From the NCBI GenBank assembly GCA_000092065.1, contig CP000595.1: a stretch of 64,000 bases of DNA. One strand, given 5' to 3'. Below the pieces are notes generated by a model, which saw only the letters and a program-made list of their open reading frames with translations, was not told the origin of the DNA and ran no database searches. The DNA comes from Ostreococcus lucimarinus. Its lineage: Eukaryota. Below, piece after piece: positions 4,340-12,938 of the stretch (within the stretch, counting starts at the first letter, position 1; the number at the start of each line of letters is the position of its first letter). A program made the translations under genes and the position numbers.

Positions 4340-5107
4340 TTAACTGTTTCTCATTTTCGAAGCCGCGGCGTCGTCGACGATCCATCGCACGTCCCCGGTG
4401 ACCAAGGCGGCGGGCACGGAGCCATCTTGCGGCGCCTCTTCCAATATTCGAGCCGTCATTTCGGCTTTTCCCGCACCGGAGGCGACAAAAACTTTCGCTC
4501 GAGCGGCGTTCACCAAGGGCAAGGAGAACGTCACGCGTTCCGGCGGCGGTTTCGGCGAGTCGGCGATTGGTAAAATCCATCCCTCGGTCTCGCGCAACAG
4601 CGCGTGGTTTGGAAACAGCGAGCAGATGTGACCGTCGGGCCCGAATCCGAGCAAGAGCATGTCGAACACCGGCAATCCATCTTCGTTCAACTCGATCACG
4701 TCCGGCGTCAGCGCGCGTAAATCTCTCTCGTACGCCTCCGCGCACGGCTTCGCCGCGCCCTCGTTGCGTTCGCACAGCGTCTCGTCGACGGCGTACAACC
4801 GTTCTCGCTTCACGCTCACGTCCCCGAACAGCGCCCGCATCGCGCCTCCAAAATTCGATTCCTCGTCGTCCCACTTCACGCATCGCTCGTCCACCCAAAA
4901 CACTCGCCATTTATCCCACTCCACTCGCCGCGTCTCCTCCCGCAGCGCTCCGAGCGCCTTCGCGAGCGACCCCCCCGCGAGCGCCACCGCGAACGTCCCT
5001 CGCTTCTCGATCGCTTCTCTCGACGCCGTCTCCACCGCGTCCGCCAGCGCCTTCGCGCACGCGTCGTTATCGCGCACGCGTTCCATCGTCACCGAGGTCG
5101 CATCCAT
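4340..5107 (-). CDS. PGL: 6-phosphogluconolactonase
   Basis: VALAGGS...WVDERCV...LLLGFGPDGHICSLFPN...VFVASGAGKAEM are 6PGL/GlcN6P-isomerase family motifs. I chose the start at MDATSV (cat at 5105-5107). The Arg-rich upstream extension to 5344 could be a transit peptide or a GC artefact. Confidence 0.75.
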   Translation of the reverse strand: MDATSVTMERVRDNDACAKALADAVETASREAIEKRGTFAVALAGGSLAKALGALREETRRVEWDKWRVFWVDERCVKWDDEESNFGGAMRALFGDVSVKRERLYAVDETLCERNEGAAKPCAEAYERDLRALTPDVIELNEDGLPVFDMLLLGFGPDGHICSLFPNHALLRETEGWILPIADSPKPPPERVTFSLPLVNAARAKVFVASGAGKAEMTARILEEAPQDGSVPAALVTGDVRWIVDDAAASKMRNS

Positions 5108-5365
5108 CGCGTCCCGACGACGATGTCCCGCGCGACGACGATGTCCCGCGCGACGTCCCGGTCGTCGCTCGAGCGGTCGACGCCGCGCCGCGATCGTCGC
5201 GCGCGAGTCCGACGCCCGCGCGCGTCGCATCGGATCGATCGCGCGCGAACCACCGCGTCGCGCGGTGCGCGCGTCGTCGCTCGCACGGCGCGCATCCATC
5301 GGTCGATGCGATTCGATTCGACGCGACGCGCGCGCGCGCCGCACTCGACGACGCGACGACGGCGG

Positions 5366-5482
5366 ATGGCGACTCGACGCGCGCTCCGACCGCTCATGGA
5401 CCGCGTGCTGGTGGAGCGCATCGCGCCCGCGACGAAATCCGTGGGGGGGGTGCTGCTGCCGGAGAGCATGACGGGGAACACG
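5366..5482 (+). CDS. CPN10: Cpn10/GroES (HSP10) exon 1 of 3; the gene is join(5366..5482,5672..5741,5872..5996)
   Basis: MATRRALRPLMDRVLVERIAPATKSVGGVLLPES matches the Hsp10 N-terminus (M.KRLIPLLDRVLVEKI..GGILLPEK). The exon ends at ACG|gtgcgt. Confidence 0.7.
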
Positions 5483-5545
5483 GTGCGTCGACGACGAGGA
5501 CGAAGGCTCGCGAAGGATGGTCGGCGGCGACGCATGCGCGCACGC

Positions 5546-5575
5546 ATGAATGAATGAATGAATGAATGAATGAAT
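5546..5575. repeat. (ATGA)7 microsatellite inside Cpn10 intron 1
   Basis: atgaatgaatgaatgaatgaatgaatg. Confidence 0.8.
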
Positions 5576-5671
5576 GCGCGCGCGCGCGCGGACATCGACG
5601 ACGGTGGCGGACGAAAAAACAAAGGATGAAAGACTGACGCGGAGAATCGCGCGATGACGACGCGGACGCAG

Positions 5672-5741
5672 ATGAACGAGGCGAAAGTGATCGCCGCGGG
5701 ACCGGGACGAAGAACGATGAGCGGCGAGCTCGTGCCGTTGG
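5672..5741 (+). CDS. CPN10: Cpn10/GroES exon 2 (MNEAKVIAAGPGRRTMSGELVPL, phase-1 end)
   Basis: Acceptor gacgcag|ATGAAC after an ACTGAC branch at 5633. Matches Hsp10 GKVIAVGPGSRDKDGKLIPV. Donor TTGG|gtgcgag at 5742. Confidence 0.65.
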
Positions 5742-5871
5742 GTGCGAGACGCGACGCGCGCGCGCGATGAAACGCGAAACGGACGCGAAACGGGACGAAC
5801 AGACGACGGTGACGACGATGACGACGACGATGACTGACGAAGGAATCGATGACGGTTCGGACGAGGCGCAG

Positions 5872-5996
5872 AGATTAAGGTCGGGGACGTCGTCGCGCTT
5901 CCGGAATTCGGCGGCGCCGCGGTGAACGCGGGCGACGGCTCGGGGAAGGAGTACTTTATCTATCGCGAAGAAGAGATCGTGGGCGTCGTGGAGTGA
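5872..5996 (+). CDS. CPN10: Cpn10/GroES exon 3 (EIKVGDVVALPEFGGAAVNAGDGSGKEYFIYREEEIVGVVE*)
   Basis: Acceptor ggcgcag|AG after an ACTGAC at 5832. Matches Hsp10 VKEGDTVLLPEYGGTQVKLG.KEYHLFRDEDVLG. TGA at 5994-5996. Full protein about 103 aa. Confidence 0.65.
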
Positions 5997-6323
5997 GCGC
6001 ACCGCGCGTGACGCGAATTTAGCATCGATCGACGCGCGCGACGCGTCGTTTAATCCGACATTACGGGCATTCATTCAAAGTCGACGCGCGCGCCTCGCCC
6101 CGGCGGGTTTCGACGCGAGCGACAATCGACGTCGCACAACGCGACTCGCGGGTCGACCGCGCGCGCGATCGCGCGTGATCGCGCGACGGATTCGTTTACA
6201 CGTCACGTCGCGCGCGCGCGAAGCGCACGCGCTCGTACGCGCCGCGAACGCGCGAACGGTGTCGATTCGATTTGAACTCTCGACGCGACGGGATTTTGAC
6301 TTTGAAACGCGCCGACGCGCGCG

Positions 6324-9300
6324 ATGACGCGCGAGGAGCGAGGATCGTCGGCGAAGAAGAAGCGTCGAACGTCAACGTCGAGCGCGAAGGGCGAGAGCGG
6401 GGCGACGCTCGACGGACAACGCGAGGCGCGCGCGCTCGGGCCGTGGTCGACGACGGCGCGCGCGCGAGAGGAACGCGCGCGCGCGCGCGCGCACGCGAGC
6501 GCGAGCGCGAGTGGGAAACGAACGAGGGAGGAGGAGGAAAAGGGATCGTTTCGTGGATTATTCGTGGATTGTCGGACGGTGGACGATGACGCGGCGTTCG
6601 AGGCGTGGGAACGGGAGATGCGGGCGGTGGGCGAGGCGCTGCGCGAGTGCCCGTGTACCGAGAAAGACTGGGAGAGCGTGGGGGCGATGGAGAGTGCGCA
6701 AGGCGAAGGCGAAAGTGATGCGTGGGAAAGCGAGAAGATTTGGCTTCATAAGATGTCACGCATCGCGTTCTACGACTCGCAACCGCTGAGCGAGACGAAC
6801 GCGTGGCCGTTCGCTTCGAGAACGAAGAAGGACGCTACAAAGTCGACGGTGGCGCTCTTCAAGGCGAGCGTCTCGGCTTTCATCGCAGCGAAAAATACGC
6901 AGCGACTTGCGGAAGTGGACTGGAAATTACAAGAAAATAAATTAATCAACAGTTGGAAAGAATTGCTTATGACCCACACGCCTCGTCCGGGAGGCTTGGC
7001 AGACGTGTCGTGCGAGTTCAACGTGCACGTCACAGCGCTCGAGCAAGAGTTGGCGAAGAGACAAAATGAAGGTGATAAATCGGATGAATTTGGACGGCGC
7101 ATCAAACACATCAAAATCATGATACAGGTGTTGCAAAGCATAAAGGCGAGCTTCCAGTACTGCGCCACGGCGCTTTATGACACCGTGTTCGCGCCTCTGA
7201 GAGCTTTTTCTTCGGCGTCCATTACGAGTGAAAATTTCGAATCCGGCGTGGAGTTCGTCTCATGGGCCAGTCGCTCGGTGATGATCGCATCCGAACTGTG
7301 CCAAACGAAAGATTCATATCACGTTCGAATGACGCGATACACCAAACACGAGTTTTTGAATTGGTCACGAAAACTTTTGGACTTCTTCTACCACCACCTA
7401 TCGTCCGTGAGAGGTTCGCACATTGTCGAAACACTCGGGTCAGGTAGTGATTGTGCAGAATTAATGCAGCTCATCAAGTGCTTACCCACCATGCGTCTGA
7501 CGCTACCGTGCAAAGGGACTAGCCGGCGTGCCACCTATCTTTCGGACACAAGATTTTCGGACAAATTTCAACGAAAGCTGACACGATTCGCTCTCACGGT
7601 GATCGGTGCTGCAAAGTCTCAACTTTCGCAGCACACACAAACGCACAAATTAGGCAAATTTCTGTTCCCGGAGTGGATCGAGCATCTCGTCGATACCATC
7701 GAGCACAATAAGAGTTACACAGTGAAAGAGCTAGCCCGGGAGATTCTTCTCTCGTTGGATATTGCCAACTTGCTCGCAACTCGTGTAGAAGTGCTCAGCG
7801 TAAAATCTCTCATAAAATTGTCTGACGATGAATTGTCTGTCGACGACGAATTGTCTGTCGACTACGATGACGACGTAAAAGAGCTCAAAGAGTTGTTATC
7901 ATGGCTTCGCTCAATATTAAGCGTGCATCCATCCAAGTTGAGGAACGTGGCTGACTTGGCGAAGGACTTGATTTCCGTCTTTGGATTCTGTCGCCTCCGA
8001 CGCGAAACACATGGTGACAAAGTTCAAAAAAGTGGGCATGATCATAGTTTAGAGTCGGACATATGCAGTATCTTTGCGTGCCTCGCCGTCAGTCGCGATC
8101 ACGACCTTGACGATGAAGAGAAGCTCAAATCTTGTCCGTGTGAGATGGTCAAGTTGAGATCTGAAGACGCGAGAAAAATGATTCAGCAATTGGTGATGCA
8201 TGAAGATCATCTCGACGATGTCGAGGCGGTGATTTTGAATATGCTAACGCTGGATCGAACGAGCATGTCAGCGAGCGATACAACCATCCCTTCCGCTTTG
8301 GCCGCGCTGACTATGTTGGTCCGAAAAAATTGTGTCCTCAGGGAGCGATTTTTCAAATCGGGCGACACCACCAACACGTTGTTGGAGATTCTTGAGTGCA
8401 AGAATGCGAACGTAGCGCGCATCACCAGCGCTTGCATTCTGTCATTCGAAGAGCATCATCGGCTCGTGACTAGTTTGTACAAACCGAACGTGATCACCGA
8501 TAAAAAAGGCGAGCAAGTGACTGAAATATCTGGTTGGGACGTTGACACGATTCGTCAGTCGCTCAGAGCCATCTCTGCGCTCGTCAAAGACTCTACCGTG
8601 TCTTCAATCGGTTTCGATAGCGCCATTTTGGAAGTCATCTGCACTGATAGGCGAATGCTTGTTCTTACGAACAAGATCAAGGCGACGATAGAAAAGAAGA
8701 TTAACAAGAGTATGGATTATCCCAACTCCCGGCTCTGCTTCCCAGAAGCTCTGCTTGAAGAATGGGTGTTCGATCTACTCTGCATGAGAAGCGATCTTCT
8801 CACTCAAATGGCCACTGCGGTCACAAACGGCGGCGGTGACCCGTGGAAAAACTTCAAGCCTAAACATGAAGAGTTCGCGAGTTTCATCAGTCGTGAGTTT
8901 GAAGTCGCGAACACCGACGCGACGATACCACCGGAGGCGCACGCAGAATGGTTTCAAGAGGTCGTGACATTGGTGACAACTGTGCAAGAAAAACTCAAGA
9001 AAGACGAGGAAATCTCCGACGTCTGCAGTATTTTGATGGATGGAGACACCGATGGTCCATCTTCCCGTGTTGGTATCGTAGTCCCCATCTTAACTCTGTT
9101 ACACAAATGTCGCATCTTGCAGGAGCACAATTTGATTTCCGAGCTAGAAGTCGAGGGCATCAGCGATATTGAAAAAGAAGCGTGTTACGTCATCGGCTTA
9201 TTAGCGAGTAAGCAAGGAATTCAAGATCGTATCGCAAGCTCTTTCCTTATCGAAGGCAAGAACGGAATCGAGCAATTAATTCCGCTCTTGCAACGATACC

Positions 9301-11417: not shown

Positions 11418-11645
11418 TTAAGAAATGATCAGCGCCTTCTTGAGCAAAGCACCCACGGTCTCCGACGGTTGCGCACCCTTGGCGATCCAATCCTTGATCG
11501 CCGGCGCATCCAAAGAGGATTGCTTGCGGATCGGATCGTACCACCCCAACTGTTGGATTGGCAAACCGTCGCGGCGCGCGCGCGAGTCGATGGCGATGAT
11601 GCGATAAAACGGTTCCTTCTTGCGACCCATGCGAGTGAATCGAAT
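11418..11645 (-). CDS. RPS16: Bacterial-type (organellar) ribosomal protein S16, 3' exon; a short 5' exon encoding the first residues is not placed
   Basis: [39 protein letters not shown]...[20 protein letters not shown] matches bS16 ([25 protein letters not shown]...GFYNP...GAQPS). The in-frame codons IRFTR lie upstream of the track's ATG and abut TAG at 11646-11648, which forms an AG acceptor (gatatag|ATT) with an ACTGAC branch 28 nt upstream. Confidence 0.65.
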
Positions 11646-12390
11646 CTATATCGCGTCGTAATCGCGCAAACTCGTCAGTCTCCCGTTCACACTCCCGTTC
11701 ACTCCTCGTTCTCGACTCTCCTTCGCGTCTTTCGCGTTCGAAATCCCCATCCTCGCGTTCGTCTCCCCGAGGTCAAGCCCTGAGGAAATAGGGTTCCTCC
11801 CTCCCTCGCATCTCGCGCGACGTACCGCAACTCTGTTCTCCACGCGCAGCGCCGCGCGAGCGCCCGTGATGGTTCTCTTTTCAACCTATCGTCGCGCGCA
11901 TCCACCGTCCGTCGTCAGTCGTCGCGTTCGCGTCCTCGTCGTCCGCCGTCGCCGCGACCCCACCCATCGTCGACGGCGTCGCGCGATTCGGTCGTCCCGC
12001 GTCCCGCCGTCGCGCTTCGCGCGCCGCCGCGTCGTCGTCGTCGTCTCGACGATTCAATTTTACGCGACGCTCGCGCACCTTGCTCTGCACGCGCGCGCCG
12101 CCGACGAGGGCGGCGCTGAACGTGAACGTGCTCGCGCTCATGACGGACGCGGTGTGCCGCGACGACGCGCGCGGGGGCGCTCGACGCGCGACGGGCTGTT
12201 GGTGGCGTGCGATCGCATCGCGCCCGATGCGCGTCCGTCATGGGATCTCTCGCGCGCGGAATACGCGATCCCGACGCCTGCGCTCAAAAAATGCGAAAAC
12301 GAGACGTCACACGGACCGCGAACCCTCGCGCTCGAGGTCGCGCGATCGCGCTCGACGCGGCCTCTTTCGTCGACGCGCGCGCGACTCACG

Positions 12391-12573
12391 ATGATCAACG
12401 CCGACGGTGAAAATGTGGACCTGTACATCCCGAGAAAGTGCTCGTGGACGAACCGCCTGATCACGGCGAAGGATAAGGCGTCGGTGCAGCTGAACGTCGG
12501 GCATCTCGACGCGAACGGGGTGTACGACGGACGGTACACGACGGTCGCGCTCGCGGGTTACGTGCGAAGCAAG
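12391..12573 (+). CDS. RPS21: 40S ribosomal protein S21e exon 1; the gene is join(12391..12573,12873..12938)
   Basis: [61 protein letters not shown] matches S21e ([32 protein letters not shown].NV). The exon ends at AAG|gtgcgtgcg. Confidence 0.8.
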
Positions 12574-12872
12574 GTGCGTGCGCGCGCTCGATGCGATGGG
12601 GAAGAAATGTTTGCGTCGCCCGGGCGCGGGCGGCGGCGATGGGGGTCGACGATGCGCGCGCGACGCGGCGATCGCGCGGTGGTCGAGCGAGGCTAGGGCT
12701 TTTGAGCGCGCGCGCGGGCGACGAGGCGGGGCGCAGGACGTCGAGTGGGGGCGACGAGGCGCGTTTGGGATGGTTAAGGCGCGAAGCGGAGAGATCGCGC
12801 GCGTGGTGCGCGTGATGCGTCGTGCGAACGCGTGTACTGACGAATCGACGCTCGTTTGTTTCCCGCGAATAG

Positions 12873-12938
12873 GGCGAATCCGACTCCGCCATCGACTTGC
12901 TCTGGCAAAAGAAGAAGGCGGCCATCAACCAAGCGTAA
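12873..12938 (+). CDS. RPS21: 40S ribosomal protein S21e exon 2 (GESDSAIDLLWQKKKAAINQA*)
   Basis: Acceptor cccgcgaatag|GGC with a TACTGAC branch at 12834. Matches the S21e C-terminus GESDDSILRLAK. TAA at 12936-12938. Total 82 aa. Confidence 0.75.
   Translation, partial: GESDSAIDLLWQKKKAAINQA

Follow-up and report, generated by a model that had tools for sequence, protein, structure and literature searches.

The 64,000-nucleotide stretch of Ostreococcus lucimarinus DNA analysed here (the window) very probably carries a nuclear gene for a mitochondrial-type Cpn10 (Hsp10), which is interrupted by two canonical introns and most likely read from the ATG at 5366 into a protein of 103 amino acids. 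The three-exon gene is real, ordinary and already publicly annotated, and its splice model is the published one. A protein search returned a deposited protein of 93 amino acids from O. lucimarinus CCE9901 (Mamiellales, Bathycoccaceae), named “co-chaperonin 10, mitochondrial” (XP_001421602.1, ABO99895.1, UniRef100_A4S8D8), which is 100% identical over its full length, both splice junctions included. The deposited sequence runs unchanged through junction 1 (...ESMTGNTMNEAKV...) and junction 2 (...LVPLEIKVGD...). Because the identity extends across the junctions, the sequence-only reading that had pointed to this locus rediscovered an annotated gene model. The features of the gene and its surroundings are listed in Table 1.

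Table 1. The Cpn10 gene of O. lucimarinus and neighbouring features (positions in the window unless another contig is named)
Feature	Position	Strand	Description
6-phosphogluconolactonase (6PGL)-like gene, ORF	4340-5344	-	Start near 5107 if the product is 255 aa
Intergenic region 6PGL-Cpn10	5108-5365		Short, divergent; upstream in-frame ATGs at 5123 and 5141
Exon 1	5366-5482	+	117 nt, codons 1-39, MATRRALRPLMDRVLVERIAPATKSVGGVLLPESMTGNT; start codon, first β-strand and first half of the mobile loop
ATG of deposited model XP_001421602.1	5396-5398	+	93 aa, MDRVLVERI...; probably internal Met11
Intron 1	5483-5671	+	189 nt, phase 0, after codon 39, GTGCGT...CGCAG
Microsatellite in intron 1	5546-5576	+	(ATGA/TGAA)n, from the repeat search
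Branch motif of intron 1	5632-5639	+	GACTGACG
Exon 2	5672-5741	+	70 nt, MNEAKVIAAGPGRRTMSGELVPL plus base 1 of codon 63
Intron 2	5742-5871	+	130 nt, phase 1, within codon 63, GTGCGA...CGCAG
Branch motif of intron 2	5832-5839	+	GACTGACG
Exon 3	5872-5996	+	125 nt, EIKVGDVVALPEFGGAAVNAGDGSGKEYFIYREEEIVGVVE, stop TGA at 5994-5996
Organellar-type RPS16 (PF00886)	11421-12100; in L077, 9652-10400	-	Two apparent upstream introns
RPS21e (cytosolic eS21)	12334-12935	+	One intron of ~290 nt, roughly 12574-12863, after ...GYVRSK

Joining the three exons by script yields a frame of 312 nt that encodes 103 amino acids without an internal stop. The sequence-only reading had described three short pieces that translate to a continuous, full-length Hsp10, separated by introns of 189 and 130 nt with GTGCGT and GTGCGA donors, ACTGAC branch sites and CAG acceptors. 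The in-frame join and a match to the entire Cpn10 profile of Pfam bear out the first part of this description, and every coordinate and motif in the second part proved exact. The same reading held that the gene is invisible in a six-frame track. This stands in so far as no set of gene-like ORFs covers the exons: in the ORF list, exon 2 lies within a 38-aa ORF (5654-5770), no ORF of at least 30 aa covers exon 3, and the only long ORF in the frame of the gene is, as had been claimed, an Arg-rich one of 144 aa (5123-5557) that holds exon 1. It does not stand for the 144-aa ORF itself, which on its own reaches 24 bits against the Pfam Cpn10 profile, above the curated cut-off of 21.1 bits. This read-through ORF ends at a TGA (5555-5557) that belongs to the microsatellite in intron 1. 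The more general claim that homology-guided splicing finds genes missed by ORF scanning is true, but it describes standard eukaryotic gene prediction.

The 103-aa product matches PF00166 (Cpn10) with 82.5 bits (E = 2.3e-23), residues 7-102 aligning to positions 2-93 of the 93-position profile. The profile alignment that had been proposed as a check on the gene was therefore passed over the full profile length. Scanned singly, the exons match consecutive blocks of the profile (2-30, 35-55 and 57-93), with exon 1 alone reaching 27.6 bits over positions 2-30 and exon 3 alone 25.2 bits over positions 57-93. This colinearity indicates that the three pieces are parts of one domain and not chance matches. 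The product forms a single domain of ~100 residues, large insertions are absent at the exon joins, and a sister-species sequence that reads through both joins uninterrupted aligns to it without a gap at either one.

In a search of solved structures, the best relatives of the algal protein were human mitochondrial HSP10 chains (E = 1.8e-20, 76 bits). Chlamydomonas chloroplast Cpn23 (E = 6.6e-16, 62 bits) and Cpn20 (E = 9.9e-14) were also matched, and the bacterial matches scored 52-63 bits, among them Thermus cpn10 (E = 1.9e-16) and E. coli GroES (E = 6.8e-13). The NCBIfam models of bacterial GroES gave full-length matches that all fell below their curated cut-offs (best score 71.9 bits, cut-offs of at least 96), as is expected because the protein is a eukaryotic member of the family.

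Comparing the algal protein with human HSP10 (HSPE1; PDB 6mrc, 4pj1, 8g7n) reveals the same length class and an alignment over residues 5-100, with an identity of roughly 45% when counted by eye from the alignment. Both proteins have a (K/R)xxxPLxDRVLVER N-terminus, a GG(I/V)(M/L)LPE mobile loop and an LPE(Y/F)GG motif. The mobile loop GGVLLPES of the alga aligns with GGIMLPEK of human HSP10, and it is the sequence encoding this loop that is interrupted by intron 1. The algal protein differs from its human counterpart by one additional residue in the mobile loop and, in the loop that precedes KEYF, by three more. The Pfam family also includes bacterial GroES (E. coli 1aon; Thermus 4v4o), with the single-domain profile matched end to end, but its matches are weaker (about E 1e-13 to 1e-16), and the algal gene is nuclear with spliceosomal introns, unlike that of bacterial GroES.

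In both GroES and Hsp10, a hydrophobic tripeptide of the mobile loop contacts the chaperonin. By homology, the algal Cpn10 would act as a heptameric lid that caps mitochondrial Hsp60 and binds it through the mobile loop GGVLLPES. Seven subunits would form a dome, and their mobile loops would bind the apical domains of Hsp60 in its ATP state. We infer this oligomeric function by analogy with the characterised members of the family. Upstream of these steps, the pre-mRNA would be spliced at the GTGCG donors, with GACTGACG as branch sites and CAG acceptors, to give the joined frame, which would then most likely be translated from the ATG at 5366.

Both the compartment and the start of the protein allow other readings. 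Green algae have plastid as well as mitochondrial co-chaperonins, and the matches to the two Chlamydomonas chloroplast proteins would also suit a chloroplast-type Cpn10. We nevertheless consider a plastid location very improbable. The best matches are to mitochondrial HSP10, LPEFGG of the alga aligns to LPEYGG of human HSP10, and the depositor's name for the protein contains “mitochondrial”. Moreover, the product has a single domain, preceded by only six residues from its conserved start, too few to accommodate a transit peptide. A mitochondrial location is thus suggested by the order of the matches, by this short N-terminus and by the depositor's naming.

As for the start, XP_001421602.1 begins at Met11 of the 103-aa model, which adds MATRRALRPL from the ATG at 5366 and has the N-terminus (M)ATRRALRPLMDR, compared with MDRVLVER in the deposited model. 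The exact 103-aa product was absent from the protein collection. If the deposited product is the true one, translation would begin at the ATG at 5396 with the same introns, and 5366-5395 would be 5' UTR. This model is the public annotation, Met11 is kept in every lineage examined, and the 93-aa protein still scores 75.7 bits (profile 7-93), above the Pfam cut-off. We regard it as unlikely all the same, since conservation at the protein level extends across lineages into the ten upstream residues. MATRRALRPL occurs in two Ostreococcus strain groups, MATRRLLRPL in a sister species and MSAVKKLIPL at the N-terminus in a Bathycoccus-like lineage; four of the N-terminal codons differ from those of the sister species, and three of these four changes are synonymous. 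The ten residues can also be aligned with the N-terminal strand of human HSP10, beginning at its residue 5, and with positions 2-6 of the Pfam profile, where they add 6.8 bits. A ribosome scanning the mRNA would encounter the ATG at 5366 first, provided that transcription does not begin downstream of this site. The conserved MATRR(A/L)LRPL N-terminus therefore favours the start at 5366, which the sequence-only reading had chosen, over the RefSeq start. The ATG at 5366 appears better supported than that at 5396, and the RefSeq model is quite likely truncated by ten N-terminal residues. A start still further upstream, at the ATG at 5123 or 5141, would lengthen the protein to ~180 aa and provide it with an Arg-rich targeting presequence at the N-terminus. 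In line with this, no stop interrupts the frame between 5123 and exon 1, the extension from this ATG is rich in Arg, Ser and Thr like organellar presequences, and the close strains L010 and L011 have an upstream in-frame extension as well. However, both ATGs sit in an 18-nt tandem duplication, less than 40 nt from the start of the divergent 6PGL gene. Of the three lineages, two (the L003-L009 group and the sister species) lack in-frame ATGs before MATRR, and upstream sequence and frame are not conserved. Arg-rich open frames are common in all frames of this CG-rich DNA (61% GC), and mitochondrial Hsp10 proteins normally lack a cleaved presequence. We consider such an extended protein extremely improbable and rejected the ATG at 5123 as a start because the upstream ATG is not conserved.

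The tandem duplication in the 6PGL-Cpn10 intergenic region is perfect (5115-5150, two copies of CGACGACGATGTCCCGCG) and carries both upstream ATGs. These duplicated ATGs give the misleading 144-aa ORF the appearance of a gene.

The exon-intron structure is reflected in the pattern of conservation among wild strains. We compared the window with nine related three-exon Ostreococcus metagenome contigs, comprising the close strains L010 and L011 and a second strain group, L003-L009. The exons measure 117, 70 and 125 nt without a single indel in all nine. Exon identity to the L003/L009 group is 93-95%, as opposed to an intron identity of 65-71% with 30-59 gap columns. Intron 1 varies from 154 to 189 nt over the nine contigs, with lengths that are not confined to multiples of three, and is 65-66% identical between the window and the L003/L009 group. 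Intron 2 measures 120 nt in the L003-L009 group (71% identity, 30 gap columns) and 130 nt otherwise. The related strains keep GTGCG as donor, CTGAC as branch motif and CGCAG as acceptor. Much of the length variation of intron 1 is accounted for by its tetranucleotide microsatellite, which is polymorphic among wild strains, reading (GAAT)n in the window and (GGAT)n elsewhere with a varying copy number. In L003-L011, a 6-phosphogluconolactonase-like gene lies on one side of the locus and a large ARM/BTB gene on the other. The orthologous 6PGL-like genes carry a PF01182 annotation, and the gene was mapped onto the window.

Both introns have GT-AG boundaries with GTGCG-type donors, and the donors of the orthologous Ostreococcus introns read GTGCGC and GTGCGT. 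ACTGAC is present in both introns in its extended form GACTGACG, with the branch A placed 34 nt from the 3' end in each. The extended motif occurs 11 times in the window, compared with 4.3 expected occurrences, and no shuffle reached 11. Irimia and Roy found ACTGAC in 87% and GACTGACG in 66.5% of the EST-confirmed O. lucimarinus introns outside chromosome 2, which also have strong 5' splice sites (PMC2483917). Judged by these signals, both Cpn10 introns are typical O. lucimarinus spliceosomal introns of the type found outside chromosome 2. An origin from introner-like repeated elements was rejected: a repeat search of 5000-6400 turned up nothing beyond low-complexity CG-rich matches and the microsatellite, and no sequence is shared between these introns and their sister-species orthologues.

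Further occurrences of GACTGACG, counting both strands, lie at 8087, 8553, 16209, 17930, 21420, 22573 and 62869 and may mark other introns. Two of these, the minus-strand motifs at 8087 and 8553, are probably chance matches because the long ARM/BTB ORF on the plus strand covers them. The apparent introns of the RPS16 gene in the window carry the motif at 11673 and 11913, with the donors GTGCGC and GTACGT.

Searching for the spliced exon 1-exon 2 junction with a pattern degenerate for the known strain variants gave no match in the metagenome contig collection (metagenome_contigs), and no contiguous spliced sequence of the O. lucimarinus type was present among 65 related loci. The O. lucimarinus-type contig L029 (Ga0182095, a probable metatranscriptome series) keeps both introns. 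The supplementary gene list of the O. lucimarinus EST paper includes entries for chaperonin 60 but none for Cpn10.

The evidence on splicing comes from a sister Ostreococcus species, whose RPS21e shares 95% identity with O. tauri RPS21e. Genomic contigs of this species (L016-L020, L026, L031, L056 and L078) carry the gene in three exons. Exon 1 measures 117 nt and exon 2 measures 70 nt, so that the introns lie at the same positions and in the same phases as in the window. They are 198 or 197 nt (GTGCGT...TAG) and 184 or 187 nt (GTGCGT...CAG) long. The contigs L001/L077 (Ga0182063, 17.8 kb) and L002/L012 (Ga0182055) are 99-100% identical to the genomic contigs of the sister species and lack exactly the two Cpn10 introns. 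When the genomic exons are joined, they equal the contiguous coding sequences of the intron-less contigs exactly. L077 also lacks, just as precisely, the 361-nt GTGCGT...CAG intron of RPS21e, 6.5 kb away, which is the orthologue of the RPS21e intron in the window. L077 and L012 are most likely RNA-derived, that is, metatranscriptomic, and as such they provide near-direct evidence for splicing of the orthologous introns at these sites. Since L077 keeps two apparent RPS16 introns and is a mosaic of spliced and unspliced sequence, we infer its RNA origin rather than regard it as proven. In O. lucimarinus itself, both introns are probably removed as well.

The contigs could instead represent a natural intron-less allele of the sister species, affecting Cpn10 and RPS21e, in which case they would be uninformative on splicing. 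L077 is indeed a 17.8-kb contig with genes on both strands and intergenic DNA, and it retains the apparent RPS16 introns. Reverse-transcriptase-mediated intron loss favours highly expressed genes and takes adjacent introns together. An allele of this kind would, however, require that three canonical introns have gone from two genes 6.5 kb apart in DNA that is 99.7-99.9% identical to intron-bearing contigs. The intron-less form was also restricted to the Ga0182xxx samples (two of three contigs) and occurred in none of the nine Ga0181/Ga0255 contigs that span both intron sites. From the shared Ga01820xx numbering, we take the samples of L077 and L012 to belong to JGI project Gs0128817 (Groves Creek Marsh). 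For this project, PMC12137139 describes a contig from Ga0182069, in the same numbering series, as metatranscriptomic. We therefore hold an intron-less allele to be distinctly unlikely, and a reverse-transcriptase-mediated conversion that erased three introns from Cpn10 and RPS21e, both highly expressed, and left those of RPS16 in place to be highly unlikely. If there were such an allele, it would represent a segregating recent intron loss in a wild picoalga population. Even then, the precise excision at GT-AG boundaries marks the missing blocks as introns. We dropped the idea that L001 is a truly intron-less orthologue, reflecting lineage-specific intron gain or loss, as genomic contigs of the same species carry the introns.

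The comparison across lineages also bears on the age of the introns. The sister-species contigs L019 and L078 have the same neighbours as the window (a 6PGL-like gene, Cpn10 and a large ARM/BTB protein) and three Cpn10 exons. In a Bathycoccus-like lineage, whose identity was assigned from its GC content only (0.46-0.48, for example L038), the best spliced model has exons of 114, 73 and 131 nt and introns of 273 and 71 nt, which occupy the same two aligned positions in the same phases as those of the window. Whereas the window uses GTGCG donors and CGCAG acceptors, the Bathycoccus-like lineage has GTACG donors and TACAG acceptors. The intron sequences of the window are unrelated to those of the sister species and the Bathycoccus-like lineage, and their lengths differ (198 and 184 nt in the former, 273 and 71 nt in the latter). 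As the same positions recur in these lineages, both introns appear to be older than the lineage split. The intron sequences, by contrast, have turned over completely.

The protein search found no Cpn10 of O. tauri, even though the collection contains the RPS21e of this species and a close relative clearly has Cpn10. The orthologue in O. tauri may lack an annotation or have been modelled wrongly.

On the L003-L011 contigs, prokaryote-style gene calls split Cpn10 into fragments that run into the introns (P0003-P0007). One such spurious entry in a large protein collection is P0006, which is 148 aa long, Arg-rich and has 11 member sequences. An antisense ORF of 226 aa (5394-6074, minus strand) lies over almost the whole Cpn10 gene and has no Pfam match. 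In one metagenome pipeline it was called as a gene (L010, 2772-3452). Most likely, the high GC content has produced this ORF as an artefact.

Taken together, this result has little value outside quality control. A small split gene was rebuilt correctly from raw sequence by a first-stage reader. For the public model XP_001421602.1, it offers a probable correction of the start by ten residues. It also calls for caution with marine metagenomes, in which prokaryote-style gene calling breaks up algal genes of this kind and yields spurious protein entries. Biologically, this is a textbook case and not novel: a mitochondrial Hsp10 gene with two canonical Ostreococcus introns. A by-product of the analysis is that the positions of these introns are conserved in related lineages.
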